From an uncultured virus (IMG/VR IMGVR_UViG_3300042540_001200) (Duplodnaviria > Heunggongvirae > Uroviricota > Caudoviricetes): a stretch of 64,000 bases of DNA. The stretch covers positions 1 to 64,000 of the IMG/VR virus record IMGVR_UViG_3300042540_001200. One strand, given 5' to 3'. Position numbers and translations under genes: made by a program. Below, piece by piece: positions 6,962 to 56,886 of this stretch. Under the pieces are notes generated by a model that made no database searches, was not told the DNA's origin, and saw only the letters and a list, made by a program, of their open reading frames with translations. Position 1 is the first letter of the stretch. Each line of letters starts with the position of its first letter.

Positions 6962-7336
6962 ATGTCATCAGAATTTTTAAAAAAGTTGAGTTCAAATCAT
7001 CCGTTTATAACCGTATGCTCCTATGCAGGTCAAGAGTATATTGGTGTTGTGCAAAACCGTGATGATGATGTTACAACATTCTATGATTATGGTGCTATCA
7101 TTGAACACGAATTAAAACAATTATTTTTAGAATTAGGTGATGTATGGTGGTGGGAAAGTAATCGTCTTATACCTATCAACATCTTTTTAAAAGATGAATG
7201 GCATGTATTTAAACAATATCTTAGAACATTTAATAATAAATCTCTAGTGATTATTCACGGACCAACCACCTCGATTAGTGAACTAAGCAAAAGACGTGTT
7301 AAGCGTAAAAGCATTACGTTGGTCAAGCGCATGTAA
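6962..7336 (+). CDS. hypothetical protein (opposite strand)
   Basis: Fills gap between minus-strand genes; likely start MSSEFLKK; WWWESNRLIPINIFL motif. Confidence 0.75.
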   Translation: MSSEFLKKLSSNHPFITVCSYAGQEYIGVVQNRDDDVTTFYDYGAIIEHELKQLFLELGDVWWWESNRLIPINIFLKDEWHVFKQYLRTFNNKSLVIIHGPTTSISELSKRRVKRKSITLVKRM

Positions 7337-7909
7337 TCCTAATTCTTCAATCAAGTTCATATGTACAACCACCAAGTGTGCATAACTTATTGAATGACTT
7401 TTCTTAAACGAATACCCATCATGATCAGTTTTGTCCCATACAGTTTGATTAACTTCACTCCATGTCTTACCAATCAAATGCCTTTTAGCAGGACGAATTA
7501 CAGCTAAAAACATTGCCATACGTGGTATGGTATTGATAGGTTCAGGCATTTTTCTCATCGTATCATAATGTTCACCAATATGAATCAATGACTGAAAGAA
7601 TTCTTTATCATATAATTTTGACCAATTAGGCTCGGCCATTAATTTGATAAGATGATTTTCGTCCCGAACATGCTTGTATACCCAAACATTTAAAAAATCT
7701 AGCTTGATATAGTTTCTATCTTCGGCTTGTTTATATTCAAGTGCCGCCCAATCATGTATAGGGTCATAAGGAATGTTAGTCACGTATACGCCTGTAGGAT
7801 GTTTTTTTACGCCATCCGTAGTTTTCATGTGAGCAGCAACGTATTTGATATGCTGTAAAATATCATTGCGGTCAGCAAAGTCAATATCAATGTCACTATT
7901 GAAAGTCAT
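7283..7909 (-). CDS. dnaE: miniature DNA polymerase III alpha-like protein, catalytic (C-terminal) part
   Basis: SDIDIDF, KHPTGVYV, KLDFLNV, AVIRP, YSFKKSHSISYA match DnaE PDxDxDF, HAAGVV, KxDFLGL, RPG, YxFNKSH. Confidence 0.85.
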   Translation of the reverse strand: MTFNSDIDIDFADRNDILQHIKYVAAHMKTTDGVKKHPTGVYVTNIPYDPIHDWAALEYKQAEDRNYIKLDFLNVWVYKHVRDENHLIKLMAEPNWSKLYDKEFFQSLIHIGEHYDTMRKMPEPINTIPRMAMFLAVIRPAKRHLIGKTWSEVNQTVWDKTDHDGYSFKKSHSISYAHLVVVHMNLIEELGLHALDQRNAFTLNTSFA

Positions 7910-8604
7910 AAATCCATTTGCTCAATAATTCGCTTAATTGATTCGACTGTATCTTTTTCACGATACAATTTTATACCCCATACGTCAGGATTAATATAAT
8001 CAAAAATTAATTTGATTTGATCTTGGTTAAGATTTTCAATAAATGCTCTACCATGTGTAGAGTTGTACAAAAACCATGGACTAATTTGCCCATTAATTAC
8101 TGAATAACATAGTTTATTATGATTTAAAAATTTAAAGGCATCACGTACTTGTATATTTTGTTCATGACATAATATTTTTAACGATTCAATACTACGTTTA
8201 ACAGCATCATACGCATCTTCTAATTTTAAATAGTCGATAAGAAACTTGGTATAGTATACATCACTATTCCAACTATCAATGATAACCTTGTGTGATACAA
8301 GATAATCAATGTAACGAGCAATGTTAATAACTTTATTAGCTAGGCAGTAACTAGCAAACTTAATAAATGCGCTATAAAATGGACTATAGATAAAATCTAT
8401 GTACTCAAGTTTTGATTTAGTAGGATGATTTTTTTGGTGATACATTTTAAAAGCACCGTGTGCAAAACGATTGACTTGGTTATCACGTTCATTCCATCGA
8501 CGTTTTGATTCACACAAATGTGTTAATAATGTACTCTCACGTATAAATGATCGTTTACAAAACTCACATTGATTAGTAATTTCCGTTTTCTTTTTCGTAG
8601 TCAT
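7906..8604 (-). CDS. hypothetical protein with N-terminal Zn finger
   Basis: CEFCKRSF...LLTHLC; lies in replication operon. Confidence 0.7.
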   Translation of the reverse strand: MTTKKKTEITNQCEFCKRSFIRESTLLTHLCESKRRWNERDNQVNRFAHGAFKMYHQKNHPTKSKLEYIDFIYSPFYSAFIKFASYCLANKVINIARYIDYLVSHKVIIDSWNSDVYYTKFLIDYLKLEDAYDAVKRSIESLKILCHEQNIQVRDAFKFLNHNKLCYSVINGQISPWFLYNSTHGRAFIENLNQDQIKLIFDYINPDVWGIKLYREKDTVESIKRIIEQMDL

Positions 8605-9148
8605 TAATATCTTGTTCATTGACAATTGTACTCAAATATTCTATATCACAAAGTTTCATACTAGGAAATAATTTAGCTAAACGATACCTTAGGTTTTGTA
8701 ATTGCACAAACTCTACGCTAGTTTCATTAATAACTTTATCGTTAGCATTGCTAATTTTCTTAAAATACTCTGCTACTTCTTTTTTTGTAGCCGCAACTTT
8801 TAACTCACCAATTTTGTGATTTAAATGTGGTATCCATTGATGAAATTGCACTCCTGAATTTGGGCTAGCTACACACAGCATATACCAAATTAATTTAGGA
8901 TGACGTTGAATATATTCATTAAAGAAGTGTTTATTAACAAACTCATTAGCTGCAATGACGTAATATTTTGATAACTCACCTTGTTTTTTAATTGAACTCA
9001 TCCAATGCAGCATCATAAATGGAACAAATTTCTTTTGTTGTTCTTCGGTAAGTCGATCATAATAATCATAATCCTTACGATCTAATGCTTCAAGCGCACC
9101 AAATAAATCAAAGTCAACGTTTTGTAATTTAAGATCAGATTGTTTCAT
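8573..9148 (-). CDS. putative clamp loader small subunit (T4 gp62-like)
   Basis: PFMMLHWMS...ANEFVN...QWI pattern recalls gp62; size and context fit. Confidence 0.55.
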   Translation of the reverse strand: MKQSDLKLQNVDFDLFGALEALDRKDYDYYDRLTEEQQKKFVPFMMLHWMSSIKKQGELSKYYVIAANEFVNKHFFNEYIQRHPKLIWYMLCVASPNSGVQFHQWIPHLNHKIGELKVAATKKEVAEYFKKISNANDKVINETSVEFVQLQNLRYRLAKLFPSMKLCDIEYLSTIVNEQDINDYEKENGNY

Positions 9149-9386
9149 TACTGTCCAATGACAATATTAGTAAACTGAGTTCTTCATCGTTACTAACTTG
9201 ATAATAGTGTGTAGTTAAATAAAAATCATCTTCTAATTTGTAGACAGGGATAATTTGTTTGCCTGTTTTACTTTTATACCATTCTCTAGCATTTGGAAAA
9301 GTTAAAAATAAATTTTGATCATTGATGCAAGCTATCTCAAAATCTTTTTTAATTTGATGAAATTCATGTCTTGGTATTTCAAACAT
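9135..9386 (-). CDS. hypothetical protein
   Basis: Likely start MFEIPRHEF overlapping upstream stop. Confidence 0.55.
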   Translation of the reverse strand: MFEIPRHEFHQIKKDFEIACINDQNLFLTFPNAREWYKSKTGKQIIPVYKLEDDFYLTTHYYQVSNDEELSLLILSLDSNETI

Positions 9387-9582
9387 CTTTACATAAATCT
9401 TTAAACATCTTTTTTCGACCATCAACTGTAAGTATATGATCAAATATTTCAGTAGTACGTTGTAGCATTGCACATGCTAGCATGAGTTGATCATTATGAT
9501 TCTCAGTCATAGCAAGGGCTGTATCAATAATAACCATCATATTACTCATTTTCATTTCAGTAGGATCAATTAATTTACTCAT
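9379..9582 (-). CDS. hypothetical protein
   Basis: 67 aa coupled ORF. Confidence 0.65.
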   Translation of the reverse strand: MSKLIDPTEMKMSNMMVIIDTALAMTENHNDQLMLACAMLQRTTEIFDHILTVDGRKKMFKDLCKDV

Positions 9583-13389: not shown

Positions 13390-14046
13390 TTATGCTCCTG
13401 CCTTAGGTTTTAATAGTGAAAGTTCTTGATCCATGCTACGGTTGTGCTCGTTGCGTGGTCCTGTCCACACATTAGTCTTAGCTTCACCTGTTACACGATT
13501 AGCCCATAGTTCACAAAATGCGCTATGTGGGCTAGTATCGTACGTTTTACCGTTTTCATGACAGGTAAAAGTTCCATCTGCATTGACAGTAAAACTTACC
13601 CTAATAGGATTACAATTAGTATCATTTTTAGATTGGCTAAAGGTTTGTCCTGCTAATTCTGCCACACGATCACGTGATTTATTACTAGCAATAAATTTTA
13701 CAGCAGCAGGTTCAAGCTCAGTTTGGTTAACATTTTGTTCACTTGCTCCGTATACTTCCATAAATTTTGATACACGCTCAACTAACATACCATCAGTATC
13801 TTCAAACCATTCACCTTGCATTCGTTCAGGCAATATAGCATGTAACATTTTTTCAACTCTGCTCATACTATCCACTTGCCAATACTTAATCATGGTATAA
13901 CCAATGGTAAACTTAGTACTGTTTAGTGCATTTTCTCTGCTTGGTACGTTAATACTTTTGCCAACTTTTTTTTCAGTAAGTGAACTGATATCCTTACCGC
14001 TATAGTGATAATAGCCACCAACGTAAATATAACCTGAATCAGTCAT
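13390..14046 (-). CDS. T5orf172/Mug113-type GIY-YIG domain protein
   Basis: GYIYV...KVGKS...R...L...EKMLH...GEWF; start MTDSG after GGAG. Confidence 0.75.
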   Translation of the reverse strand: MTDSGYIYVGGYYHYSGKDISSLTEKKVGKSINVPSRENALNSTKFTIGYTMIKYWQVDSMSRVEKMLHAILPERMQGEWFEDTDGMLVERVSKFMEVYGASEQNVNQTELEPAAVKFIASNKSRDRVAELAGQTFSQSKNDTNCNPIRVSFTVNADGTFTCHENGKTYDTSPHSAFCELWANRVTGEAKTNVWTGPRNEHNRSMDQELSLLKPKAGA

Positions 14047-14093
14047 ATGGGTAATCTCCATGTAAATTTTCGCTATTGTAGCAAAAAGATAAT

Positions 14094-14119
14094 AAAAAAG
14101 CACAGACTAGCTGTGCTTT
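14094..14119 (-). terminator. intrinsic terminator
   Basis: AAAGCACAG/CTGTGCTTT stem with U-tract. Confidence 0.8.
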
Positions 14120-27587: not shown

Positions 27588-30308
27588 CTATTCAAAAGTA
27601 AATAGTGAGTCAAATTTATTGTTTATGTTTGTATTTTTTTCTAAATCCCATCCTAATACACCAAGTAGATTGTCAATCTTTTTATCTACTAATGTATATT
27701 CCATTTCACGATCATCAAATGGTAATTCAACAAACCATTGTGGTAATCGTAACTCATCAGTAGGGTACGCAATACTTGTAAAATTTAACGGGTTGTTTTT
27801 TAACTTACAAACAATAATTTTAGAACCATTGGTAATCTTTGTACTGTAATTATCATGGTTTAGTTGTCGAAGAAAATTCCAATTAAGCGAGGCACGAACG
27901 TGGCCTGGCATGTTGACTTTACCATCTTTACTACGGTTTAATTTTTCTTCATACAACGCTAACTTATTAACTGCTTTAGGACTACCTTTATTCCAACTTG
28001 GCATTTCACGTAGTTTATGTTTGAAAGTTATAATCTTTTTAATAATGTCATCACGTGAAGATCCTCCTAGAACATCTTCTAGTATACTGAATAAAAACTC
28101 TTGTACAAATTTTGGTGTGTCAGCACGTTTTAGATCAAGACCCATTGCCTTAATCTTACCTAACTTACCATCATTGTCTAAACGTTTACCTTCTTTGTCA
28201 TAAATGTTAACTGCATATCTTTTCTTAGTAATAAACAATCCACGATCAGCAACTAATTCACGTCCTGCTTTAATAATAGAACCACTTGATTTAGGACAAT
28301 GAAAGGTATCATACATAAATTGTGGAAAACTTTGATTGACTGTATTGCCTAACTCATCATATATAGCAATTGCATTTTCTTTAGTCCACGTCTTTTTTAG
28401 TTCAGCATCTTGTGACCATATAGGCCATCCACTGAAATAACATGAGTCAGTGTCACCATAAACAATAGCATCACCTGTATGATCATATTCGCCTGTAATT
28501 AATTCATTTAAATACGCACTCATATGTTTTACAATTTGTCTACCTGTTAATGTAGTACTTTGTCCAATACGTTTATCGTAAAATCGACAATGTTGATTCA
28601 ATAGCGCACCATAGGCAGAGTTAAGTAAAATCTTACGTACAAGTTGTCGTTTATCATAAAACTCAGCTTCTTCGGGGGTTTTTGCTTCTTTAAGTTGTTT
28701 TTGAATTTGTTTACGTTCGTTATACCACCTCGTCAACAACCCAGGTATCACCCCCTCTACTTCATTAGTAAAAATAGTACCATTGGCACTAAGTATCCAT
28801 GGTTTACCACTGTTAAAAATTAGTTCGTGTATTTCCGCAGCACTTGCTACATCACTGCCACCACTTTCCCAATCAATAGTAATCATAGTATGACGTTCTT
28901 TATTCATCACCGCCGTATATTCTAAACTACCAAACAATCCTTCCCATAGGATAGGACCATCCTCGCCTTCTACCTCAGTATCTTCAGATGCATTGCGATT
29001 TTTTTTCTTTTCTCGTGCTAGTTTTTGGCTTTTATCATATAAGTATTGATCAGTTAAAGTTTGTTTTAGTTGTCCAACTATTGTTTCAGGTGCCATGTTT
29101 AGTGCACGAATCGTCGATGGATATAGCGAGTTTAAATCAACTGCTGCTATCCATTCATGTATACCTTTTTTAGGATAAGCAACATATGCACCCGCAGCTT
29201 TACTTTCATCATCAGTATCACGTGTAGGTTTGTCAGGTATGATTAACCCACGTGAATGTGCTTCGTTAATCACAGCTTGTTCAATCATAGCTACACTGCC
29301 CATCACGGTAGGTAATAATACGGTATTTTGATGTGCAATGCTATTGGCTAAGTCTAAAAATTTTAGTTTGTTATGAATCTTAAAAAGAAGCATCGTATCT
29401 TGACGGTTATACTCTAAGAATGTTTTCCAATCATTATTGTATAGTTGATCAAGTGTACCTTCGTAAGGTGTTTTCTTTTCACCTACTTCCATTTCACCAA
29501 TATAATCAAGTTTATAACTATGACGTTGTTCGTAATTATATTTTTTATATAACTCAAGGTAATCCATGTGTATACGACCAACTAAATCATAAGTAACTTG
29601 TTTTTGATCAAATTGAACAAACTCACGTTGTTTTGGTGGTTGGTTGAGTAAACAAAAACGGTAAGTATCTTCTTTCGATAATACTCTTGTTACACGATTA
29701 ACCATATATGGTATATCATAGCCACCACTATTCCATCCTGTTAACACATCAGCATCTTCAATCAGTGTAAAAAATGTATCAAACATTTCTGCTTCATCTG
29801 CAAAAACAAAGGTATTTTCAAATGATGATGTAATTTCTATTATTTCATCTTGTGATAATCCTTTTGGTGGCACACATAGTGTAATCAGTGTATTGCACCA
29901 ATCAAGATACATTGAAATAGAATTGACTGCATTAAACGGATCACTTGGTGGTGCGAATCCATATTCAGGGTCAAAGTTTACCTCAATGTCAAAAAAACAT
30001 GTATGTAATTTTGGTGGTGGAGCATCTAAATAATTATCTGCCAAACATCGAAAGACAGGATTGATATCACTTTCATAAGTTTTTTTCTTAGATAATACAC
30101 GCAATTCTTTTTGAAATTCAGAGCGTTTTGATGTGACGAATTTAGTAAGTGATTCACCATCTACACCACGATATTTTCCTTTTGGGTCAGGATAATAAAA
30201 AATATATTTGGCTTTGTATTCTTGGTAAACACGCTTACCTTTATCATCACGTTCTACAATGTAAATGATATCTTTGTCACGATCTAACAACGCATCAACA
30301 TAACTCAT
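27588..30308 (-). CDS. gp43: family B DNA polymerase (gp43-like)
   Basis: Exo FDIE, GWNS.GYDIPY, YN.QD; pol DLNSLYPS, KILLNSAYG, YGDTDS, KKRY; C-terminal clamp-binding DSLFTF. Confidence 0.97.
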   Translation of the reverse strand: MSYVDALLDRDKDIIYIVERDDKGKRVYQEYKAKYIFYYPDPKGKYRGVDGESLTKFVTSKRSEFQKELRVLSKKKTYESDINPVFRCLADNYLDAPPPKLHTCFFDIEVNFDPEYGFAPPSDPFNAVNSISMYLDWCNTLITLCVPPKGLSQDEIIEITSSFENTFVFADEAEMFDTFFTLIEDADVLTGWNSGGYDIPYMVNRVTRVLSKEDTYRFCLLNQPPKQREFVQFDQKQVTYDLVGRIHMDYLELYKKYNYEQRHSYKLDYIGEMEVGEKKTPYEGTLDQLYNNDWKTFLEYNRQDTMLLFKIHNKLKFLDLANSIAHQNTVLLPTVMGSVAMIEQAVINEAHSRGLIIPDKPTRDTDDESKAAGAYVAYPKKGIHEWIAAVDLNSLYPSTIRALNMAPETIVGQLKQTLTDQYLYDKSQKLAREKKKNRNASEDTEVEGEDGPILWEGLFGSLEYTAVMNKERHTMITIDWESGGSDVASAAEIHELIFNSGKPWILSANGTIFTNEVEGVIPGLLTRWYNERKQIQKQLKEAKTPEEAEFYDKRQLVRKILLNSAYGALLNQHCRFYDKRIGQSTTLTGRQIVKHMSAYLNELITGEYDHTGDAIVYGDTDSCYFSGWPIWSQDAELKKTWTKENAIAIYDELGNTVNQSFPQFMYDTFHCPKSSGSIIKAGRELVADRGLFITKKRYAVNIYDKEGKRLDNDGKLGKIKAMGLDLKRADTPKFVQEFLFSILEDVLGGSSRDDIIKKIITFKHKLREMPSWNKGSPKAVNKLALYEEKLNRSKDGKVNMPGHVRASLNWNFLRQLNHDNYSTKITNGSKIIVCKLKNNPLNFTSIAYPTDELRLPQWFVELPFDDREMEYTLVDKKIDNLLGVLGWDLEKNTNINNKFDSLFTFE

Positions 30309-34429: not shown

Positions 34430-36619
34430 TTATGATGAGCCAAAAAACTTATTCATCAAAGCTTTTTGTTTTTTAGGTTTTGCCCCAAGTACAGGACTAA
34501 TATTAGCCACCTTATCAGTGCCACTTAAGTATTTTGGGTTACGCTTGTCCTCTTTAGTATAACGTGGGTCTTTAGGGTCATACTCAGTACCAAATGCACT
34601 CTTAACTTGTGACGAATTGAATATGATATAAGACATATCTATATAGTCAGCTTGTTTTTGCAAATACTGATGCGCTTCTTGTTCAGCTTCTTCAGGTGTA
34701 TCGCCTTCACCAATAGGTAAAGTAGGCATAACATTATCAGGTAAATATGCTACGTATTTTGATCCTTCTTTTTTAATCGTAAAATTAATGCGCTCATCAG
34801 GTCGCAATGTTCGCTTACCTTCATTAGTATTACGATATTGTATACCATCATATCCCGCATCAAACAATGAACGTGCTAATTCAGCATAGATTGTTGCTTT
34901 ACAGTCATCCCAATCCATATCACGATCCCTACGAATTGCTTCAAGTTCGTTATATTCTTTTTGGTTAATAATCTTTTTCTTAAATAAAAAATTCATAACT
35001 TGACGTAAATGCTCTTCATCAGGACCAAATATGTCAGGCATAGTAAAAGGGTTTGTAATCTTTAAAAATACAGGAATTACACGTGCTCCACTATATTTGG
35101 CAAACTCATTAGCTGCTTCACGATTGCCAAAATGTATACCAAAATCACGATATAAATTTTTAAACGTTGAAAAATCATTAGATGTACCATGATAAACAAT
35201 CATAGGAGCACCATTACTATCAACTACTTTACTATTGCCAAACCATGCTCTTAAATTTTCCTCACGACCTTCTACTAATTCTTTTAAAAAACTCATGGAC
35301 TCTTTGTTGATATTAGGATTAGTTGGGTCAAATGTACCATCATTGTAAACGGATTTGATTTGCTCAGGGCGTAATGCTATGTACCACGTTTTGGTTCTGC
35401 CTTTTATAACGAAGCCATCATTACCGTTTTCTGTAGCCTTTTTAAGAAGATTACGCACTTGGACGTATCCCTTACTAGAATTAGACATTGACACCCATTT
35501 GTCCACGGATATAGAAAGCGGATTTTTAATAGATAAGAAAACGGGGATGATGTTGGCACCTTCTTGTTGAGCATACCCGCCAGCATCCGAGGCTGACGTT
35601 GAGAAAAAGATGCCTAGATAATCAGTTGCATTTGGCACACTGCTGCCTTTTGGCGCAGACTTGTCAAACGCTGCAAAGTTTCTGAGCGTACCGTGATACA
35701 CCACTAACGGATCGCCTCTTTCATCAACCACCTTACTATTACCAAACCACTTATTAAAATTATTTTTTCTATCATTACTATCTTCTTTAGTAATGTCAGG
35801 TTCATATTTACCAAATGTACCTACATTATATATAGACTTGATTTGATACTGTTCAAATGGACGATAAGTTAAAATAATCGGTGTGCCCTCAGCACCAAGT
35901 TCTAACTCTTTTCCATCACGTGGTTCATATTTTTGGGAACCTGCTTCAAAAACATCTTTTAAAATGACACCATCATATCCCATACCTTGTAGGTAACTTA
36001 CAATATCTTCACTATCTGCAATAGTATATGTATCTATAACCGTATTGTCTAGTGCATCCTCAATAGAACTAATATCGTCTGCTTCACCCCATGTGTCAAT
36101 TTGATCTGAAAGGTCACGAAATCCTTTTATTCTAAAACCATCATCGTCATAAGCATTGATTGAAAATCTTGCGCCTGTTTTGTATATAATTTCATCTAAA
36201 TCATATATCATATAGGACACATCTCTCCAACCTAATTTTTTACGTCCACCATCAGGTACATTTAGATCACTAGGCACCGTATTAATAAAATCTATTAATG
36301 ATATTGTTTCGTTATAACGGGTAAGATCTAATGGTTTAACAATTCGTAAATACGCTGCGATTACAGTAGAACCACTACCATATTGTCTTGTGTCTAAATG
36401 TCTAGAGTATACACTAGCTGCTGCAGGGTCATTAGTAAAAGATGGTACTGCACGACCTTGAGTTAATTTAAATTCTGTGGCAGCAGGTCGCTTACGTGTA
36501 CCACGATATACAACAAGTGGGTTGCCATTACTATCAACCACTTTACTATTACCAAACCAACTACGAAATGCTTTTGTCTCTCTAGCTTTTTGGTATTCTA
36601 ATAATTGTCCAATTTTCAT
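34430..36619 (-). CDS. polyprotein with three ADP-ribosyltransferase-like (ART-PolyVal type) domains
   Basis: Three copies of WFGNSKVVD..G.P..VY(H/R)GT ... L.I..P ... G.DG ... Q(I/V)KS. Confidence 0.75.
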   Translation of the reverse strand: MKIGQLLEYQKARETKAFRSWFGNSKVVDSNGNPLVVYRGTRKRPAATEFKLTQGRAVPSFTNDPAAASVYSRHLDTRQYGSGSTVIAAYLRIVKPLDLTRYNETISLIDFINTVPSDLNVPDGGRKKLGWRDVSYMIYDLDEIIYKTGARFSINAYDDDGFRIKGFRDLSDQIDTWGEADDISSIEDALDNTVIDTYTIADSEDIVSYLQGMGYDGVILKDVFEAGSQKYEPRDGKELELGAEGTPIILTYRPFEQYQIKSIYNVGTFGKYEPDITKEDSNDRKNNFNKWFGNSKVVDERGDPLVVYHGTLRNFAAFDKSAPKGSSVPNATDYLGIFFSTSASDAGGYAQQEGANIIPVFLSIKNPLSISVDKWVSMSNSSKGYVQVRNLLKKATENGNDGFVIKGRTKTWYIALRPEQIKSVYNDGTFDPTNPNINKESMSFLKELVEGREENLRAWFGNSKVVDSNGAPMIVYHGTSNDFSTFKNLYRDFGIHFGNREAANEFAKYSGARVIPVFLKITNPFTMPDIFGPDEEHLRQVMNFLFKKKIINQKEYNELEAIRRDRDMDWDDCKATIYAELARSLFDAGYDGIQYRNTNEGKRTLRPDERINFTIKKEGSKYVAYLPDNVMPTLPIGEGDTPEEAEQEAHQYLQKQADYIDMSYIIFNSSQVKSAFGTEYDPKDPRYTKEDKRNPKYLSGTDKVANISPVLGAKPKKQKALMNKFFGSS
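35211..36559 (-). repeat. near-identical 26-35 bp repeats at the start of each ART-like domain
   Basis: 35211-35245, 35724-35749, 36525-36559 (1-2 mismatches to the 36525 copy). Confidence 0.85.
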
Positions 36620-37056
36620 CCACGGTCTTTTTTCAATATGCTACGAAGCATCCATGAATGTTTTGCGTGACTATCAATACGTCCTGCTATAAAATCAGCA
36701 ATACCTTGCTCATCTTCTGCTTCACATTGATGGAATGTTTCTTTTAATAATACAATAATCTTTTGATTATCTTCGTACAATTCTGCCATCATTAACTCAG
36801 CACGTGGTATTTGTTGTTGCTCATCAATAATACTTAACTCTTGATACCTCGTCATGGATCCTGGTGCATATGAGTCTAACTGTCGAATTATTTCAGCTAG
36901 TTGATCAATACTGCCATATACTTCATTATACAAATCACCTAAAAATGCATGATATTGTGGAAAGTTTGGGCCTTCAATGTTCCAATGAAACCCTGCTGCC
37001 TTTATATAAAAAGCAAATGATGTTCCTAACACTTGCTTTAACTTATCTTTTAACAT
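36616..37056 (-). CDS. dps: Dps/ferritin-like protein
   Basis: HWNIEGPNFPQYH, IDQLAE, H.KH.WML. Confidence 0.92.
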   Translation of the reverse strand: MLKDKLKQVLGTSFAFYIKAAGFHWNIEGPNFPQYHAFLGDLYNEVYGSIDQLAEIIRQLDSYAPGSMTRYQELSIIDEQQQIPRAELMMAELYEDNQKIIVLLKETFHQCEAEDEQGIADFIAGRIDSHAKHSWMLRSILKKDRG

Positions 37057-43457: not shown

Positions 43458-45705
43458 TTACCTCATCCTTATCAATTGTTTTTTCTGCTGTAAAATTAAT
43501 TTCATCTCCGTTTAGTATAACGTGAACATTAGAATCTTTTAATTTTTCAAATAAAATCTTTTTACTTAACGGTACTCTGATAAGTTCATCAATCTTACGA
43601 GCAAGTGGACGTGCACCCATTTTATCGTCATAACCAACTTTAGCTAAGTGCTCAACTGCTTGCTCACTAATCGTTAAATTAATCTTGTGCTGTTTAAGTA
43701 ATTGTGCTTTTAACTCATTAACAAATTTAATAACAATTTTCTTAATGGCTAACATGTCTAACTTACTAAACTTACATACTAAATCAATACGATTACGCAG
43801 TTCAGGTTTGAAAAACTCTTTAAATGCTCGGTCATCTTCACCTACTTTTTGTGTTGACCCAAAACCAATGTTTGATTTTTCACTATCTCTAGCACCTAAA
43901 TTACTAGTCATAATAATGATTGTGTTTTTAGCATCTACCGTTTTACCATTAGTGCTAGATATTCTACCCTCATCCAATAATTGTAAGAATAAGTTATACA
44001 CATCAGGGTGTGCTTTTTCAACCTCATCAAACAATAATATAGCGTATGGGTTTTTACTTAGATCATTGATAATTTTTCCACCACCAAGATTACCTTCACC
44101 ATAGCCGACATAGCCTGGGGGCGCACCAATCAAAGCAGCTACGCTATGTTTTTCTTGATATTCACTCATATCATAACGTAGCAATGGCATGCTTAAATGT
44201 TCGCTTAATAATCGAGCAGTTTCAGTCTTACCGCTGCCTGTTGGTCCTAAGAATAAGAAACTTGCCATAGGTTTCTTTTCATTAGAAATACCCGCAAAGC
44301 TAACATATATTCTATCTAAAATTTTCTCTAATGTAGCATCTTGCCCATAGAGTTTTTGTTTAATATTTTGATCTAAGTTAGTCATTTTTTCTGATGAATC
44401 ATTAGTAAGTTTGTCCGCAGAAACGTTACACATTCTAGTGACTTGTTCTTTAATACTATTTTCATCAATAATTGCACCAACATTGTTTGCAGCACGTTGT
44501 TTAGCACATGCTGCATCGAGTAAATCAATGGACTTATCAGGATTTTTTCTATCATGAATATATCTTGCGCTCATAGTGACTGCCTCAGTAATAGCATTAG
44601 GCATAATTTTTACACCATGAAATGACTCAAGACGTTCACTTAATCCTGTCAAAATGTCAATAGTAGTTGCATTTGTTGGCTCATCAATAGAAACACGGTA
44701 AAATCGACGCATTAAAGCACGATCTTTTTCAAATGATTCGTAGTATTCTTCCCACGTGGTACTAGCAATTACCTTCAAGTTACCTTTTGTAATTGCAGGT
44801 TTAATCATATTGGCAAAGTCTACACTGCCACCACTACCATTTCCACTACCACGCATAGTGTGTGCTTCATCTATGAATAAGATAGCTTTAGGTTTGGTTG
44901 CTAATGCTTCTAAAACGTGTTTAACTTTTTCCTCAAAATCACCACGATACTTACTACCTGCAAGTAGTGATCCAATTTCTAATGAATATACTTCATGGTC
45001 AAACAAAAATGGTGGTACATTTTTGTCAAGAATTTTTTGTGCTAAACCTTCAGCAAGGACGGTTTTTCCAACGCCTGGGTCGCCAACAAGTAATACATTA
45101 GATTTGAAACGTTTAGCTAATACATTGACAATATCATTAACTTCACTTTCACGCCCAATCAATGGCTCAATTTTATTACGTTTGGCTAACTCAGTTAAAC
45201 TAATCGTAAACTCATCTAATACTTCATTAGCTTGTTGCTCAGTCATTTTTCCACTCTTACTACTTTTGTGTGCTTTATTCCAATAAGCAATAAATTCATT
45301 CCGTGTTACGCCCCATTTCAATAAGAAATAATGTGCATGGCTGTTAGTTTCCTGTAAAATTGAAATATATATGTCTATTAGTTCAATTTGTCTGCGTCCT
45401 GTGAATAATACTTGTGTTACTGCACGATTAAAAACACGCTCAAGTGAATGAGTTTTCTTTGGTGCTACAGGAGTACCATCTTCATTTGGAGACACTTTTA
45501 AATTATTGACTGAATCTAAATATTCATCAACTTCTTGAATAAGTTGTACTGTATCGACACCAAATTCATCTAGATGTTCCCTAAATGATTCAAAGGTAAT
45601 CAAACTTAACAAAGCATGTTCTAATGTTACATAACCATGATATCTGCTTTTTGCAATCTCAATGGCATGCTCAATTAATTTTTCAATTTCAGGGTTGTTT
45701 ATCAT
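43429..45705 (-). CDS. clpA: ATP-dependent Clp protease ATP-binding subunit
   Basis: Clp-N domain, GDPGVGKT and GPTGSGKT, FIDEAH, GAPPGYVG, IGF loop, GARPL; no ClpB middle domain. Confidence 0.93.
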   Translation of the reverse strand: MINNPEIEKLIEHAIEIAKSRYHGYVTLEHALLSLITFESFREHLDEFGVDTVQLIQEVDEYLDSVNNLKVSPNEDGTPVAPKKTHSLERVFNRAVTQVLFTGRRQIELIDIYISILQETNSHAHYFLLKWGVTRNEFIAYWNKAHKSSKSGKMTEQQANEVLDEFTISLTELAKRNKIEPLIGRESEVNDIVNVLAKRFKSNVLLVGDPGVGKTVLAEGLAQKILDKNVPPFLFDHEVYSLEIGSLLAGSKYRGDFEEKVKHVLEALATKPKAILFIDEAHTMRGSGNGSGGSVDFANMIKPAITKGNLKVIASTTWEEYYESFEKDRALMRRFYRVSIDEPTNATTIDILTGLSERLESFHGVKIMPNAITEAVTMSARYIHDRKNPDKSIDLLDAACAKQRAANNVGAIIDENSIKEQVTRMCNVSADKLTNDSSEKMTNLDQNIKQKLYGQDATLEKILDRIYVSFAGISNEKKPMASFLFLGPTGSGKTETARLLSEHLSMPLLRYDMSEYQEKHSVAALIGAPPGYVGYGEGNLGGGKIINDLSKNPYAILLFDEVEKAHPDVYNLFLQLLDEGRISSTNGKTVDAKNTIIIMTSNLGARDSEKSNIGFGSTQKVGEDDRAFKEFFKPELRNRIDLVCKFSKLDMLAIKKIVIKFVNELKAQLLKQHKINLTISEQAVEHLAKVGYDDKMGARPLARKIDELIRVPLSKKILFEKLKDSNVHVILNGDEINFTAEKTIDKDEVIGTDGIIRI

Positions 45706-46135
45706 ATTGTTTTTCCAATTTTCTATCCATCATAGTAATACCATCTAAATGATCCACTTCATGTTGTATAACACGTGCTTCTAACCCACTAAATGTTTCA
45801 ACAAACATGTTACCATTTGCGTCATTGTAAGATAGCACAATAGTTTCAGGTCTGTCAAGTTCCACTGATTCATTAGGATAGCTTAAACATCCTTCAAGAT
45901 AAGGTGTACTACCTTGTGCATCTTGAATCATAGGATTAAAAAAAGCTTTTTCATTATTATCTACTGCCATAACAAAAACCCTACTGCGTAATCCAACTTG
46001 ATTAGCAGCAAGTCCAATACCACCACTTTCATGCATAAATTTTAACAACTGCTTAGCTAATAATTCGTTTTGTATGGGGTATTTGAAATCAACAGGTTTA
46101 GTTTTTTGATATAATGTTCTTTTAGTTAGCTTCAT
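45689..46135 (-). CDS. def: peptide deformylase
   Basis: [24 protein letters not shown]. Confidence 0.95.
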
Positions 46136-46926
46136 TTCGTATTTAATACACGTTCTTGCTCTAAAACTCTGATTAAATTGTCACTTATTTCTTCAGGCAT
46201 AATGGGTCTAAGTATAACATACTGATCACCCAATCCAAAATTATTGGATAAACCATGACCACCTAACCTTAATGTTGCATTAGGTTTAGCTCTTGGTTGT
46301 ATGCTGATTTCTAGTTCTTTACCATATATCGTTGGTACGATAATTAACGAACCTATGACTAAGTCAAAAATACTTATATCATAATTAAAATATAAATCTA
46401 ACCCACGCCTTTCAAACAAAGGATGCCTATGTTGTCTATAAGTAACTTGAAGTGGTCCATCAGGCATTAACCCTTCATACTTAACAACACCACCATCGTC
46501 AATACCTTTTGGTATTTTCACTTCAAATAATTTCATACCTTGTGGTGTATTAATTTGCAAATTATGTTTATCACCTGTGGCTATTTGTTCTAAAGTGACA
46601 AATACTGTAGCGGTATATACTCGCTGCTGCGGTGGTGCATGTGGATGCCTAAAGAATTGCCCAAAAATATCATGGATATTTTGTCCGAAATGAAACTCAA
46701 AACCACCTTGTTGTGGATTAAACCCATTAAATTGTGGTTGAGGATTGTCATAAACAGCACGTTTTTGTGGGTCACTTAACGTGTCGTATGCTGCTTGTAT
46801 AGTTTGAAAACGTGCAGTATCACCACCTCTGTCAGGATGGTGTTGACTTGCTAACTTACGATATGCTTTTTTAATTTCATCAGGAGTAGCATTTTTTGCT
46901 ACTCCTAACGTCTGATAATGATTCAT
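46132..46926 (-). CDS. dnaJ: DnaJ class II (CbpA-like) co-chaperone
   Basis: J-domain with HPD, G/F region, C-terminal domain, no Zn fingers. Confidence 0.92.
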
Positions 46927-49678: not shown

Positions 49679-50308
49679 ATGGGTATTTATACCATATACA
49701 GAGCACGAAATACAGTGACTAATTTATCCTATATAGGATTCACTTCTAATTCACTAAAACGTCGAAAAATAACTCATAAACACAAAGCATTAATAAAACA
49801 ACAAAAATCTAAATTTTATAATGCTATTCGTGAATACGGATGGGATTCATTTGAATGGATTGAATTATATCAAGCTAAAGAAGATTGTCTCCCAAATAAC
49901 TCACATACCTTATCCGTAATGGAAAATTATTTCATACAAGAACACGATTCAATTAATAATGGTTACAACTCAGTAAATGGAGGAGGTTTATATCCAATTT
50001 TGATTGGTGGTCAAAATCCAATGTTTGGAAAAAAGCACAACGAACAATCAAAAAAATTAATGAAAGAAAATCGTAAAAAAACTTTTGGAAAAAATCATCA
50101 CATGTATGTAGTAAAACGAACAGAAGAATGGTTAAATAAAAACGCAAGGGGTAAAAATCACCCAATGTTTGGGAAACATCATACGAAAGAATCAATACTT
50201 GCTATAAAATCAGCAGTTACAAAATGTGAATATTGTGGTATAGAAACAATTAATGGGAATTACAAACGTTGGCATGGTAATAATTGTAAGTTTAAACCCC
50301 AACAATGA
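49679..50308 (+). mobile_element. free-standing GIY-YIG homing endonuclease with NUMOD3-like repeats
   Basis: TIY...YIG, R...H, E..FI...GYN; two NPMFGKKH-type repeats. Confidence 0.88.
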
Positions 50309-51467: not shown

Positions 51468-52403
51468 TTATGATGCTGTTAGTTCAATGAGTGTGGCTGA
51501 TAAATTAATTTCAGGTATACCAACAAGCGATAGATTTGCTAAACCATTTCTAATAATAATGATTGCGGTATCTTTTTGACTTTGTGTTTTACCCCATAAA
51601 TCAAGATGGTCATATAACCATTTGTAAATCGATTCAATCCTTGATGGGTTAAAGCTTAAGAATTGTAATAATAGTTTTCTACCTTCAAGTATATTACCAC
51701 TCTTAAATGCTTGTGCTACTTCTAATAAAGCAGCGTCTTGATCACTTTCATCAAGTGTTGATTTTTGTAATTCACCACTTGTGCTATTGGTTTGTAACTG
51801 ATTTAAGCATTTACGTAAATCAGGATATGTTTGGTGAACATAATGTTCAAGAACATCAATAGAAAACTGTATATTTTCAGCCATTAATACAGTAGCAGCA
51901 CGTGCAGTAAACTCAGTATAATCAGGTTTTGATATGTGCATTTTTACGCAACGTGATTCACGTAGCGCAGGAATTACACGGTATTCATAATTACAGGTTA
52001 AAATAAATCGTACAGTTGACGCATAAGTTTCCATATCATTGCGTAAACTTGCTTGTGCATCACGTGTTAGATAATCTGCCTCATCAAGTAGTACAATTTT
52101 AAAAGTGCCAAATGGCATTGTTTCAACAAAACTATGAATTTTTGTACGTACGTTATCTACACTGTTTTCACGTGATGCATTAATTTCAAGTACATCAAAC
52201 TCATTAATGTTAAGTTCATGAATGAGGATTTTAGCAAGCGTTGTTTTACCTGTACCTGGCTCGCCACTGAACAACAAATGTGGGATAATACCCTCAGCAA
52301 TCCATCCTTCTATTTGTGATTGTTGATTAGTATTAACAAAAACATAGTCATTAATTGTTTTAGGACGGTATTTTTCTGTCCATAATTTATCTTGTAGTAT
52401 CAT
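51468..52403 (-). CDS. gp44: clamp loader large subunit (gp44/RFC-like)
   Basis: LWTEKYRP, GEPGTGKT, INAS, LDEAD, SRC motif. Confidence 0.93.
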   Translation of the reverse strand: MILQDKLWTEKYRPKTINDYVFVNTNQQSQIEGWIAEGIIPHLLFSGEPGTGKTTLAKILIHELNINEFDVLEINASRENSVDNVRTKIHSFVETMPFGTFKIVLLDEADYLTRDAQASLRNDMETYASTVRFILTCNYEYRVIPALRESRCVKMHISKPDYTEFTARAATVLMAENIQFSIDVLEHYVHQTYPDLRKCLNQLQTNSTSGELQKSTLDESDQDAALLEVAQAFKSGNILEGRKLLLQFLSFNPSRIESIYKWLYDHLDLWGKTQSQKDTAIIIIRNGLANLSLVGIPEINLSATLIELTAS

Positions 52404-52697: not shown

Positions 52698-53852
52698 TTA
52701 TACCTTTAAAAATTTATTAATATCAAATCCTAATCCATTGATATTTTGTTTCCATGAATAAGGTCCCCATGAACCATAATCAGTAGATAAGTTACCACCT
52801 GTATCATCGATGTTGGCAATAACTTTTTCTTTGAAAAAATTATCTACAGATAAATTTTTTATTGCTTGTTTTCCTTTAAGTTTAGCCATTTTCCAAAACT
52901 CAGTCTTAAAAATTGACCCATGATAATAATGAAAACCTATCATATTTTCAATAGACTGAAGTTCTTTAGTATAGAAAAAATTAATATCAAAAATTCTTGC
53001 ATCAAAAGCTAAGTGGTCAAAAGTTAAACGATTAATAACGTCCATCGTACTAATTGAGGTTGCTTCTAATGGTTCTAAAAAGAATGAAGCATTACCATTA
53101 TAACATACTCTTTCTGTAAAATTTTCTTTACGATAATAATTATTAAAAGAAAAAGAATTAGTCATGTCACTTGGTGTTAGGTTGTAATCCTCAAAAACGC
53201 TTTCAACATCTTTTTTAATTTCATCTAATGAATTTAATTGATTATTATATAAGTATCCTACTGAACATCTATTTTGCAAAGGTATAACAAAAACCCAACC
53301 ATATTTTCTTGCAACTGTTCCCGTATAAAAAAACTTTGGTCTATCCCACAAGCACTGCGTTACGTGTACTGAATTTACAGGAATGCGATCAGACAATGTA
53401 AAATCTTCATAAGTTTGTGGTTTGCCTGTACAATCCATAATATAATCAGCATCAATATCATCATAAGAAATAATATTTGACTGATGTATAGTAAGTTTTT
53501 TATTTTTTTGTGCTTCCCGTAAAATAAATTCTTGTAACTTTAAAGCGTTGAAGTGAAATGAAATGTCAGGGGGTGGGAAAAAATGAGTATACTCTTTTCC
53601 TTTCGACCAATTTTGTTTTTTAATGCCATGCTTATAAGTACCATCGATTTCATTAGCTAGCATGTCGTAATTAAAACGACAAAATTTAAAAAGTAATCGA
53701 GGTAAATTTAAAGTACTACCTTCACCCACTGCTTGTGTTGGTATAGATTCATCAAAATACCAATCTATCTCATAATCTGAATAACTTATAAAATGTGCTA
53801 CTGCTAAAGCACCTGCCGTTCCACGACCAACTATAGCTAATTTTTTACTCAC
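52698..53852 (-). CDS. tryptophan halogenase-like flavoprotein
   Basis: GRGTAG, VGEGST, DCTG, GWVFVIP, FLEPLEATS. Confidence 0.85.
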   Translation of the reverse strand: MSKKLAIVGRGTAGALAVAHFISYSDYEIDWYFDESIPTQAVGEGSTLNLPRLLFKFCRFNYDMLANEIDGTYKHGIKKQNWSKGKEYTHFFPPPDISFHFNALKLQEFILREAQKNKKLTIHQSNIISYDDIDADYIMDCTGKPQTYEDFTLSDRIPVNSVHVTQCLWDRPKFFYTGTVARKYGWVFVIPLQNRCSVGYLYNNQLNSLDEIKKDVESVFEDYNLTPSDMTNSFSFNNYYRKENFTERVCYNGNASFFLEPLEATSISTMDVINRLTFDHLAFDARIFDINFFYTKELQSIENMIGFHYYHGSIFKTEFWKMAKLKGKQAIKNLSVDNFFKEKVIANIDDTGGNLSTDYGSWGPYSWKQNINGLGFDINKFLKV

Positions 53853-55020
53853 TTTGTAAATCCTTTGGATTAATACCCAAATTTATCAAATTTTGCCACC
53901 ATGAATAGGCATCCCATGATCCAAAATTGTTTTTATTTAATGTAATATGTTTTGGTATTTTATTTTCTTCATACTTTATAACATCTTTTAAACATGCTTG
54001 AAACTTAGGGTGATTTTTAAGCATGTTTAAAGATGATTGACCTTTTTCTTTTGCCATTTTCCAAAATTTAGTATTAAACTTAGAACCTTGACTGTAATGC
54101 ATTGAAATCATTAACTCAATTTGAGTAATATTATTAAAATAGTGAAAGTTACATTCATCTAAACTCATATTATCGTACAGATGATCGTAAACCAAACGTG
54201 AACATTGATTAACAAAAACAAAAGAAGTTGCCTCTAAAGGTTCTAAAAAGAATGATGCATTACCATTGTATGCAACTCTTTTAGTAAAATTTTCTTTCTT
54301 AAAATAATTTTGAAATTGAAAAGCATTTGTTTTGTCACTTGGTGTTAATTTTAATTCTTTAAAAACATTGGTAACATCTTTTTTAACTTCATCTAAAGAA
54401 CTTGTTTGTGGGTTATACAAATAACCTACTGAACAACGTTTTTGTAATGGTATACCAAAAACCCATCCATGTTTTCTAGCCATTGTCACCGTATATTCAA
54501 ATTCAGGTTTATCCCAATAACATTGAGTAACATATACTGCGTTTACAGGAATAAATTTACATATGTGAAAATCTTCATAATTTTCAGGTCTACCTGAGCA
54601 ATCAATAATGTAATCAGCATCAATGTCATCATGCGAATTTACATGTTGATCATATATCTTTAATCTAGGATTATCTTTAATTTTATCATGAATAAGTTTT
54701 TGCAAAGCTATTGCATCAAAATGCATTGCTATATGGGGTGGGTAAAACCAATGATTAAAATCATGATTGTGTTTACCCCAATTGTACTTTCTAATAGCGT
54801 ACTTATAATTTCCACCTATATTTTTAAGGTCATTGTAAGTAAAATCAATAGTTTGTCTTAAATTTCCAGGTAATACAAGCGTACTGCCTTCTCCTACAGC
54901 TTGTGTAGGTATATTGGGGTCAAAATACCAATCAATTTCATCATTTGTAAAATTTAAAAAGTGAGCAGCATTTACAGCACCTGCAGTGCCACGCCCAACA
55001 ATCGCAAGCTTTTTTTTCAT
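53845..55020 (-). CDS. tryptophan halogenase-like flavoprotein
   Basis: GRGTAG, VGEGST, DCSG, GWVFGIP, FLEPLEATS. Confidence 0.85.
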   Translation of the reverse strand: MKKKLAIVGRGTAGAVNAAHFLNFTNDEIDWYFDPNIPTQAVGEGSTLVLPGNLRQTIDFTYNDLKNIGGNYKYAIRKYNWGKHNHDFNHWFYPPHIAMHFDAIALQKLIHDKIKDNPRLKIYDQHVNSHDDIDADYIIDCSGRPENYEDFHICKFIPVNAVYVTQCYWDKPEFEYTVTMARKHGWVFGIPLQKRCSVGYLYNPQTSSLDEVKKDVTNVFKELKLTPSDKTNAFQFQNYFKKENFTKRVAYNGNASFFLEPLEATSFVFVNQCSRLVYDHLYDNMSLDECNFHYFNNITQIELMISMHYSQGSKFNTKFWKMAKEKGQSSLNMLKNHPKFQACLKDVIKYEENKIPKHITLNKNNFGSWDAYSWWQNLINLGINPKDLQSE

Positions 55021-55448: not shown

Positions 55449-55450
55449 AG

Positions 55451-55663
55451 TTACTGACGCTCCAACTCAGTAGCTTCCTTAATTAATACGCATAACTCTT
55501 CAACCGTAGATACCATAATTTTAGCCTGTGTCCAAGTATCAGTAAAATCTTGTCCACCTATTTCTAACATAAACCCGTTATCATACATGTTTATGGTAAA
55601 ACTATCATTGACTGTTTTCATTTTATCTGCAATTTTCTTAACTGCAACTTTTGGCTTAGACAT
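55451..55663 (-). CDS. hypothetical protein
   Basis: YDNGFMLEIGG; SD AAGGA. Confidence 0.75.
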   Translation of the reverse strand: MSKPKVAVKKIADKMKTVNDSFTINMYDNGFMLEIGGQDFTDTWTQAKIMVSTVEELCVLIKEATELERQ

Positions 55664-55672
55664 ATAATATCC

Positions 55673-56038
55673 TTAAATTGTTTTATCGCCCATGGTTTCA
55701 TCCATGACAGGTTCATCGCTTAATGCTAAAATGTCATTATTGTCAACACGACGAACAATGTGTTCACCATGTTCATCTTCAATCCTAATACCACGTGTCC
55801 AACGACCATGTGCTACTAAGACATATTGACCTACTTTAATTTCTTTTTGCTCAGAACCAACCGCATATACTTTACCCCAACGTGGTCTAATACCACTGTT
55901 TTTTCCATCATCACTTACAATGACCAAACCACTTGAGGTTTTTCTTTCTTCAAAATTCATATCTGAAACAATAACTCCATCATGTAGCGGAGTTAGTTTT
56001 TTGATTTTATGTGCCTGAAATAAGTAACTTGATTCCAT
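55673..56038 (-). CDS. groES: co-chaperonin GroES (Cpn10)
   Basis: PLHDGVIV, KTSSGLVI, GKVYAVG, DILA. Confidence 0.88.
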   Translation of the reverse strand: MESSYLFQAHKIKKLTPLHDGVIVSDMNFEERKTSSGLVIVSDDGKNSGIRPRWGKVYAVGSEQKEIKVGQYVLVAHGRWTRGIRIEDEHGEHIVRRVDNNDILALSDEPVMDETMGDKTI

Positions 56039-56046
56039 ATTTTCCT

Positions 56047-56370
56047 TTATTTTTTAAGTTTGGGATCCCAATCATCATCATAACTTGTAAACTCTTTATC
56101 AAGTTCAGATTGTGCAACAACCTGATTAGGTGCTTGCTCAACTGTTGATGTTGGATGTGAAACCCTATTAATTTTCTTACCTGACTGCATAGTTTTATTA
56201 TACATACTACTTACACGTCTAGTAGCATCATTAATAACACGATTATGTGAATCAATAATGTCACCACGTGCATTCACGTTCATATTACCAACTGCACGAG
56301 TACGCTCATTTTTAGCAATCAATGCATTCATATCTAACATTTTTCCTGCTGCTGTTTTACGTTGTACCAT
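56047..56370 (-). CDS. hypothetical protein
   Basis: AVGNMNVNARGD motif; SD AGGAG. Confidence 0.8.
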   Translation of the reverse strand: MVQRKTAAGKMLDMNALIAKNERTRAVGNMNVNARGDIIDSHNRVINDATRRVSSMYNKTMQSGKKINRVSHPTSTVEQAPNQVVAQSELDKEFTSYDDDWDPKLKK

Positions 56371-56379
56371 TTTTTTCTC

Positions 56380-56886
56380 CTAGCGTAAAAATTCAGTATA
56401 ATCTAGGTCATAATACATACTGTCTATTTTATGTACACCTATTTTGTAAAGTACATAACTACTTACACTACTACCACGACCTACACCCCATACTATATTA
56501 TTTAATCGCATAGTATCAACCAAATACTTTAAGTATTGCAACAATGTTAACATATCAAGTTCAGCATATCGTAATAACTCTGCGCCACATCGTTGTAACT
56601 CAGCATCATTATTACACGCTAGTAAAACCCACTCAGCTATATCTAAATCATAATATGCTTGTGGCATATGCCATACTGCTTGTTGCTGCTTATCAAATAT
56701 GGTTACAGTGCTGTTATTTACTGTGTATACTTTAATGCTAGGAATATTTTCTAACTCTAAATTACTATCAAAAGTAATAGGTTTGTCAACTAATACATCC
56801 TTTAATATAGCCTGAGTATTTTGTAAGTATAAGTTACAAATATCTTGCTCATTCAAAATAATTTGACCAAACGAATCTACTTTCAT
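56380..56886 (-). CDS. dnaE: miniature DNA polymerase III alpha-like protein, N-terminal part
   Basis: WGVGRGSSVSSYVLYKIGVHKIDSMYYDLDYTEFLR matches DnaE GPGRGSxAGSLVAYxLGITxxDPxxxxLLFERFL. Confidence 0.85.
   Translation of the reverse strand: MKVDSFGQIILNEQDICNLYLQNTQAILKDVLVDKPITFDSNLELENIPSIKVYTVNNSTVTIFDKQQQAVWHMPQAYYDLDIAEWVLLACNNDAELQRCGAELLRYAELDMLTLLQYLKYLVDTMRLNNIVWGVGRGSSVSSYVLYKIGVHKIDSMYYDLDYTEFLR

Follow-up and report, generated by a model that had tools for sequence, protein, structure and literature searches.

Two distant genes of an uncultured giant T4-like phage encode the probable halves of a split minimal DNA polymerase III alpha core

The DNA analysed in this work, referred to below as the window, comprises bases 1-64000 of a 73,680-base linear viral contig of the IMG/VR database, which is estimated to be ~21% complete and derives from an uncultured giant T4-like phage. 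In an initial annotation made from the letters alone, two open reading frames (ORFs) of the window had been singled out as parts of a DnaE-like polymerase split into two genes. These ORFs, called here the N-half and the C-half of a split minimal DNA polymerase III (Pol III) alpha, are the following:

56380..56886, minus strand: N-half, 168 amino acids (aa), recognized by PF07733, phrog_11127, an AlphaFold2 (AF2) model and VIA fold matches

7283..7909, minus strand: C-half, 208 aa, recognized by phrog_11778, a profile comparison with Protein Data Bank (PDB) sequences, an AF2 model and a VIA fold match

The translations bore out the coordinates, lengths and motifs of the initial annotation, to which the minus-strand orientation is an addition. 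The N-half protein contains GVGRGSS and terminates with ...YTEFLR before its stop codon, whereas the C-half protein starts with MTFNSDIDIDF and carries KHPTG, KLDFL, IRP and YSFKKSH. The two proteins add up to 376 aa, and their ORFs are separated by 48,471 bases. Residues 69-168 of the N-half make up the first part of a Pol-beta-like palm with the nucleotide-binding loop WGVGRGSS. The C-half consists of the metal-binding DxD (D6, D8) and KxD (K69, D71) palm strands and shortened fingers (IRPxK, FKKSH), and has no thumb. The GRGS loop is confined to the 168-aa ORF, DxD and KxD are confined to the 208-aa ORF.

The relationship to Pol III alpha was followed by several kinds of sequence comparison. 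The N-half matched the Pfam family PF07733 (DNA_pol3_alpha) at E 1e-7 with 32.3 bits against a cut-off of 23.9, its residues 108-167 aligning with profile positions 35-94, and was the only match found in the PF07733 search. It also matched phrog_11127 (E 1.8e-38), and the C-half matched phrog_11778 (E 8.8e-56), both annotated as 'DNA polymerase'. PF07733 was the only polymerase family matched; PHP, OB, clamp-binding and intein families were absent from both halves at E<=1. A profile built from 84 diverse C-half relatives, 28-57% identical to the window protein (A1), matched nine solved Pol III alpha sequences, the best being E. coli 5fku_A (E 8.8e-6). This alignment paired K69/D71 with K553/D555 of E. 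coli and KSH, within FKKSH, with K758-H760. For Taq alpha, D6/D8 fell on D463/D465, in a stretch that is weak taken alone, and the alignment jumped residues 520-601 (thumb region) and 708-809 (part of the fingers). In the corresponding profile of 63 N-half relatives, 55-71% identical to the window protein (A2), positions 125-167 aligned with Taq alpha 412-454 at E 0.024.

Relatives of the halves were found by tblastn in phages PA5oct, Atu_ph07, SCTP-2, RaK2 and 121Q, the proteins of isolate phages being at most 47% identical to those of the window. Among 50,697 phage records the N-half matched 89 and the C-half 96. When 8,000 candidates (clusters at 90% identity) were scored for each half, at least 7,989 (N-half) and at least 7,994 (C-half) were at E<=0.001. 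Judged by these sequence comparisons, the likeness of the halves to Pol III alpha is beyond chance, and the family is very large.

AF2 models were obtained with pLDDT 92.5 and pTM 0.86 for the C-half, and pLDDT 88.4 and pTM 0.69 for the N-half. In Foldseek searches the best E-values were weak (7e-3 and 3.4e-2); the top 13 entries for the C-half and the top 14 listed for the N-half were all Pol III alpha or unnamed 'DNA polymerase' entries, the latter covering the same range as PolC. In VIA-align comparisons, C-half residues 1-208 matched Taq alpha 459-853 (Z 9.2, rmsd 4.2 A, 203 aligned over 395 Taq residues) and residues 1-207 matched E. coli alpha 397-795 (2hnh; Z 8.4, rmsd 4.1 A, 198 aligned), with the best unrelated chain reaching only Z 2.7. 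N-half residues 69-168 matched E. coli alpha 278-393 (4jom; Z 10.3, rmsd 2.8 A, 97 aligned), as well as Mycobacterium tuberculosis DnaE1 307-413 (Z 11.3) and PolC 825-965 (Z 7.7). An independent VIA search with the N-half over 48,161 chains returned seven chains with Z>=5, all of them C-family polymerases, the next chain having Z 3.2. Altogether, the fold matches of the halves to DnaE/PolC chains span about Z 7-11.6.

Since the fold range of the N-half ends at E. coli alpha residue 393 and that of the C-half starts at 397, between the GS loop and the DxD strand, the two proteins abut on Pol III alpha. The claim of the initial annotation that the two genes meet at this junction was therefore borne out, and the same holds for its claim that the catalytic aspartates are all in the second piece: D6, D8 and D71 of the C-half were, together with K69 and P140, invariant in 84/84 representatives of A1. 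Positions kept in at least 90% of these sequences include D10, H37, G40, R139, K142, K169 and H172, and WGVGRGSS was invariant in 63/63 N-half sequences of A2. The approximately 200 residues of the C-half model span about 400 residues of DnaE. The C-half does not extend past the counterpart of E. coli residue 795 and therefore lacks the clamp-binding, OB and tau-binding parts; the 68 residues that precede the palm in the N-half are too few for a PHP domain. Neither the PHP nor these C-terminal parts have a counterpart in the pair, as the initial annotation had stated in describing 376 aa with no PHP, OB or clamp-binding domain and no intein.

Selection on the two genes was estimated by the Nei-Gojobori method, using sequence pairs with 0.05<dS<2. 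The dN/dS ratio had a median of 0.165 (range 0.036-0.338, 375 usable of 3240 pairs) for the C-half and of 0.217 (range 0.147-0.265, 6 usable of 45 pairs) for the N-half. A ratio near 1, which the initial annotation had named as an argument against a working pair, was not found; both values, though rough, are far from 1.

If the two proteins are parts of one enzyme, their genes should be found together. From 80 C-half loci, 11 IMG/VR contigs (61-338 kb) were chosen for this comparison. The N-half was also present in 9 of them; the two misses are fragments estimated to be 17-18% complete, and the sole record among the 11 that is at least 90% complete holds both halves. The halves share a strand in eight contigs, where the C-half precedes the N-half by 34.7-46.5 kb, and in the ninth (338.5 kb) the N-half is 237 kb upstream of the C-half. 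PA5oct has a spacing of 43.6 kb, Atu_ph07 one of 182 kb. No N-half was found within the 3-kb flanks of the C-half (0/80 loci). Thus, wherever located in the contigs and phages examined, the halves are separate genes, about 35-237 kb apart.

An exhaustive HMMER search with the C-half over 1.84 billion representatives yielded 373 matches at E<=0.001. Among the 150 matches listed of these 373, only one was a long, fused homologue, the 375-aa metagenome protein P0284. Its residues 82-180 correspond to the N-half (33% identity, E 4e-11) and residues 190-370 to the C-half (37% identity, E 3e-39), and PF07733 spans the junction at 97-207 (E 4.8e-16). The order, reading frame and linker of P0284 are as expected of an unsplit gene. 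When compared with the phage records, its two parts matched separate places (188 places in 96 records). No match covered 80% or more of P0284 in one place, hence no fused form was seen in deposited phages. No relatives of P0284 were found in scans of viral contigs or metagenome contigs, and a word-based search found no longer, fused relatives of the C-half. In a tree of C-halves, the C-part of P0284 grouped with the split forms P0272 and P0315 (SH-aLRT 93), not at the root of the family, on a branch of ordinary length; this tree was poorly resolved (40/82 inner branches open, midpoint root only), and does not distinguish an ancestral from a secondary fusion. An alignment of P0284 with both halves (A3) was discarded, as it placed the N-halves on the wrong part. 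As far as its sequence goes, P0284 confirms that the two halves are one unit.

A model of the complex of the two halves, a check proposed in the initial annotation, gave ipSAE values of 0.90, 0.90 and 0.89, against 0.04 for the best of three controls. The mark used for such models, whose calibration is only rough here, was reached by 116/157 solved complexes and 2/215 mismatched pairs. The runs shared at least 97% of their contacts, with partner pLDDT of at least 87, and in the model N-half residues 133-135 (GRGS strand) contact C-half residues 9-11 (DxD strand). The model indicates that the halves fit together as in DnaE, not that they bind. The proposal of an intein-free split core forming a heterodimer, with which the initial annotation had started, is thus supported by co-occurrence, by the fused homologue and by the complex model relative to its controls.

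Two conserved, selected and co-occurring genes encode colinear parts of a minimal C-family core with all catalytic motifs kept. We infer fairly strongly that the halves form a non-covalent heterodimer rebuilding a Pol-beta-type active site, and only weakly that this enzyme carries out DNA-templated, poorly processive dNTP addition alongside the family B replicase. In the mechanism that we propose, the halves would be made separately and would associate non-covalently, with no intein involved. The first part of the Pol-beta-like palm, including the nucleotide-binding GRGS loop, would come from the N-half; the C-half would add the shortened fingers and the metal-binding strands with DxD and KxD. 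Pairing of the GRGS strand of the N-half with the DxD strand of the C-half would complete the active site, and the assembled pair would be an active, poorly processive, DNA-templated dNTP polymerase. Working beside the family B replicase, it might fill gaps, take part in repair or extend the primers of the neighbouring primase; each of these tasks would agree, if weakly, with the retention of the finger motifs and with the position of the C-half near primase and helicase genes. The C-half histidine aligned with H760 of E. coli DnaE, the residue that we take to be the proposed sugar gate, is kept in at least 90% of the sequences. The pair is probably an active heterodimeric nucleotidyltransferase. 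That its job is templated DNA synthesis is an even bet at best. The reading as a whole, i.e. that the two genes are halves of one enzyme, a split minimal Pol III alpha core serving as an accessory templated polymerase beside the family B replicase, is the one that we favour by a modest degree.

Several points weigh against this reading. The C-half had no Pfam match at E<=1, and of the search of both ORFs against DNA_pol3_alpha suggested by the initial annotation only the N-half part was positive (PF07733, E 1e-7). The best NCBIfam DnaE score of the N-half was 22.9 bits, compared with cut-offs of 434 to 1806, and the C-half matched none of the NCBIfam DnaE models; the weak alignment behind the N-half score, between residues 6-167 and NF004226 241-394, is a hint of the end of a PHP/linker region rather than evidence for it. 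Residues 1-68 of the N-half found no fold match in the Foldseek-based or the wide VIA searches, whose results were dominated by the palm. DNA binding and templated synthesis are not assured, because thumb, most of the fingers, clamp-binding and OB parts are absent. P0284 is a singleton from one 2,415-bp metagenome contig, and might be an assembly chimera. The complex may owe its score to a resemblance to single-chain DnaE structures already solved, and the calibration of this score is rough since the model was built on our own alignments. The dN/dS values are rough because dS was saturated in most pairs. Finally, the literature searched (open-access papers and preprints) yielded no bench test of a split mini Pol III, and the available portions of PMC6892783, PMC7318152 and PMC11242549 yielded none of the pair.

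The first alternative concerns the job of the heterodimer, and its evaluation requires the replication genes of the window:

27588..30308, minus strand: family B (T4 gp43-like) DNA polymerase, PolB (PF00136 E 1.6e-41, PF03104 E 8.7e-19, phrog_262 E 4.6e-196)

3626..5023, minus strand: DnaB-like helicase (PF03796 E 1.6e-20, phrog_19 E 5.8e-69), downstream of the C-half block

5020..6003, minus strand: primase (phrog_47 E 7.5e-35), downstream of the C-half block

51468..52403, minus strand: clamp loader (domain and PHROG searches)

PolB is presumed to be the main replicase. The 'complete family B replisome' of the initial annotation stood with respect to PolB, helicase, primase and clamp loader, whereas neither a sliding clamp nor a gp32-like single-stranded DNA-binding protein was detected at the thresholds used in the window or in the 73.7-kb record (~21% of the genome); the T4 clamp family PF02916 had no match in the record. 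As no clamp was found, a full gp43/45/44/41/61 set is unsupported.

With a full family B polymerase already encoded, the heterodimer might be a nucleotidyltransferase that acts outside replication, as the initial annotation had proposed, and possibly without a template, instead of a DNA-templated polymerase. Its job might then be priming, tailing or end processing, nucleotidylation of nucleic acids or proteins, or synthesis of a signal nucleotide. The Pol-beta nucleotidyltransferase palm fold is common to many non-polymerase enzymes, the pair lacks a thumb as well as every C-terminal part for binding DNA or the clamp, and the N-half lies away from the replication genes, next to a GroES-like gene. 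On the other hand, the finger motifs of the dNTP/template region of DnaE are kept (IRPxK, and FKKSH, whose K169 and H172 are present in at least 90% of the sequences), and these suit templated DNA synthesis at least equally well. Moreover, Z>5 was obtained only for C-family DNA polymerases, MenT-like Pol-beta transferases appeared in Foldseek with a probability of at most 0.10, and the C-half is accompanied by genes for primase and helicase. We regard a non-replicative job as unlikely.

The distance between the genes, 35-237 kb in different neighbourhoods and in variable relative order among phages, could also mean that the halves work apart, the C-half being an enzyme alone or with another partner and the N-half having a separate role, all the more as a separate small gene is tightly linked to each of them (see below). 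The GRGS loop required for nucleotide binding is, however, in the N-half only, and co-occurrence, the fused P0284 and the complex model (0.90 compared with 0.04 for the best control) all point to one unit, so that separate functions seem improbable. It seems very improbable that the ORFs are decaying remnants of a captured dnaE devoid of catalysis: the pair does cover only ~1/3 of DnaE and the C-half is without a Pfam match, but the catalytic residues are invariant in the 84 representatives, dN/dS is ~0.17-0.22, nearly all of the 8,000 candidates scored per half were at E<=0.001, and both models are of high confidence.

The position of the break bears on the last alternative. The N-half stops 3 residues past the last palm-aligned position and the C-half begins 5 residues ahead of DxD, which leaves no space for intein halves. 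This split point, whose conservation had been named in the initial annotation as worth checking, is largely kept among relatives: 10/10 N-half ORFs end in ...EFL[KR] followed by the stop, and 60/81 C-half ORFs start 5 residues before DxDxD (range 3-17, depending on the choice of start codon). Although split dnaE genes joined by an intein are well known, joining of the halves after translation by a split intein, in the manner of cyanobacterial DnaE, or at the RNA level is next to negligible given these constant ends, the 3 and 5 residues outside the palm and the absence of any intein family at E<=1.

Around the two halves of the proposed accessory polymerase, four further genes deserve description:

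6962..7336, plus strand: convergent small gene, 124 aa, phrog_11637 (E 5.5e-31), function unknown; the 3' ends of this gene and of the C-half overlap by 54 nt

56047..56370, minus strand: small gene, 107 aa, phrog_14844 (E 2.6e-7), function unknown, directly downstream of the N-half

7906..8625, minus strand: 239 aa, phrog_11058 (E 4e-49), weak C2H2 zinc-finger signal, upstream of the C-half; its stop overlaps the C-half start

55673-56038, minus strand: GroES-like gene, next after the 107-aa gene downstream of the N-half

A homologue of the 124-aa gene was found on the opposite strand directly past the C-half in 77/78 IMG/VR loci with at least 450 nt of downstream sequence, and also in PA5oct (E 2e-32) and Atu_ph07 (E 2e-24). 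It is preceded by a T4-late-promoter-like TATAAATA at 6906-6913 on the plus strand; this sequence is not enriched in the window (8 observed, 13.3 expected). The 107-aa gene adjoins the N-half in 9/9 IMG/VR N-half loci and in PA5oct, and was not detected by tblastn in Atu_ph07. No clear promoter was found ahead of the N-half. The linkage of these two small genes to the halves is tighter than that of any annotated neighbour, and tightest for the 124-aa gene; this makes the 124-aa protein a candidate partner or regulator of the C-half and the 107-aa protein a candidate partner of the N-half. In contrast, the 239-aa gene is a frequent but not constant neighbour of the C-half: a homologue was found upstream on the same strand, 0 to ~2.6 kb distant, in 46/69 loci with at least 750 nt upstream. 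Searches of domain libraries with the 124-aa, 107-aa and 239-aa proteins matched no known family, only PHROG groups, and an Atlas search for the 124-aa and 107-aa proteins gave no lead. The Atlas model of the 107-aa protein is of low confidence (pLDDT 0.48), on account of which this protein may be disordered. The phrog_11637 and phrog_14844 proteins could replace the missing thumb or clamp-binding parts, and an active site split over two gene blocks could restrict assembly of the enzyme to joint expression of both. A mini Pol III of more than two parts, gated in this manner and extending primers or acting in repair before the family B replicase takes over, is a distinctly doubtful proposition.

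The minus-strand order in the window is N-half, 107-aa gene, GroES-like gene, clamp loader, PhoH and PolB, followed by a UvsW-like helicase, the 239-aa zinc-finger-like gene and the C-half; past the C-half come the convergent 124-aa gene, a virion-protein homologue, the primase and the DnaB-like helicase. PA5oct and Atu_ph07 have the same two local blocks as the window. The local context of the halves is conserved and their long-range order is not: in contig G003 the order is C-half, N-half, PolB, as opposed to N-half, PolB, C-half in the window. Among G003, G007 and the window, the block of C-half, primase and helicase shifts its position relative to N-half and PolB, the spacing between the latter two being constant at 26-33 kb. 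In PA5oct, where the halves are EST35_0288 and EST35_0220, several of their neighbours carry an 'ESI-MS/MS' note in the record, neither half does, and the two supplementary files available from the PA5oct omics paper (PMC7318152) had no rows for the halves under six identifiers.

Other genes of the window were noted in passing. Between the N-half block and the clamp loader, at 52698-55020 on the minus strand, there are two tandem overlapping genes of 384 and 391 aa matching phrog_2928 'tryptophan halogenase' (E about 1e-70), a pair unusual for a phage. A 729-aa protein with three ART-PolyVal ADP-ribosyltransferase stretches (PF18760, E 1.4e-58) is encoded at 34430-36619 on the minus strand, and a ferritin/Dps-like gene is next to it (36616-37056). 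The minus-strand segment 43429-46926 contains a chaperone/protease cluster, in which a full DnaJ is encoded at 46132-46926 and a peptide deformylase at 45689-46135, together with a 758-aa AAA+ protein homologous to an 'ATP-dependent protease' (phrog_4871, E 7.6e-235). Homing-endonuclease-type genes occur at three dispersed sites, 49679-50308 (plus), 62234-62851 (minus) and 13390-14103 (minus), the types represented being GIY-YIG-like (phrog_314), HNH-like (phrog_655) and T5orf172. No tRNA genes were found.

What makes this enzyme class of general interest is that a cut through its active site separates the nucleotide-binding loop from the metal-binding aspartates, and that this cut is kept in 96 phage records (188 places, none fused) and in thousands of half-length metagenomic protein clusters, with a family B replicase alongside. 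It may reveal what a minimal C-family polymerase needs and what role a second polymerase plays in the replication of giant phages.

A split minimal Pol III alpha was reported by Iyer et al. (2021; Viruses 13:63, PMC7824862) in group 2.2 jumbo phages, where it occurs beside a family B polymerase. According to the available text of that paper, the published form consists of two stand-alone proteins with genes far apart, the N-terminal unit binding the nucleotide and the C-terminal unit Mg2+ and the template; it has no other Pol III domains, and is suggested to cooperate with the family B enzyme in the synthesis of one strand or in repair. The window pair agrees with this form in its two stand-alone proteins, its distant genes and the absence of other Pol III domains. 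The window phage is likewise T4-like, PolB is present alongside (27588-30308), there is synteny with PA5oct and Atu_ph07, and the two proteins share phrog_11127 and phrog_11778 with genes of PA5oct, Atu_ph07, RaK2 and 121Q. Nothing of substance differs; the window copy comes from an uncultured phage fragment, is at most 47% identical to those of isolates, and has its C-half block downstream of PolB, whereas in several relatives this block is upstream of the N-half. The window pair almost certainly belongs to this known family. The feature is therefore not new, having been described from sequence in 2021, and since its significance was already argued in the available text of PMC7824862, the window provides just one more member. 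The additions made here are one natural fused form, a controlled model of the complex, and the two small genes linked to the halves.

Compared with the DnaE and PolC enzymes of known structure (2hnh, 5fku, Taq 2hpi, 3e0d and PolC 3f2b), the window pair has in common the Pol-beta-like palm, the GRGS loop, the three catalytic aspartates and the finger motifs RPxK and FKKSH. It differs in having 376 aa rather than 900-1200 aa, in the division of the palm over two chains, in the shortened fingers and in the lack of PHP, thumb, clamp-binding, OB and tau-binding parts, and it scores far under the NCBIfam cut-offs. Cyanobacterial DnaE is also encoded by two genes; these carry split-intein parts, and the products are spliced to one full-length chain. 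The window pair is, like it, a dnaE homologue in two genes, but it is intein-free, the break separates the GS loop from DxD, and the products presumably remain two chains. The closest counterpart in one chain is P0284, which matches the pair in its two modules, in their order and in total length, with a linker of ~9 residues at the position of the break.

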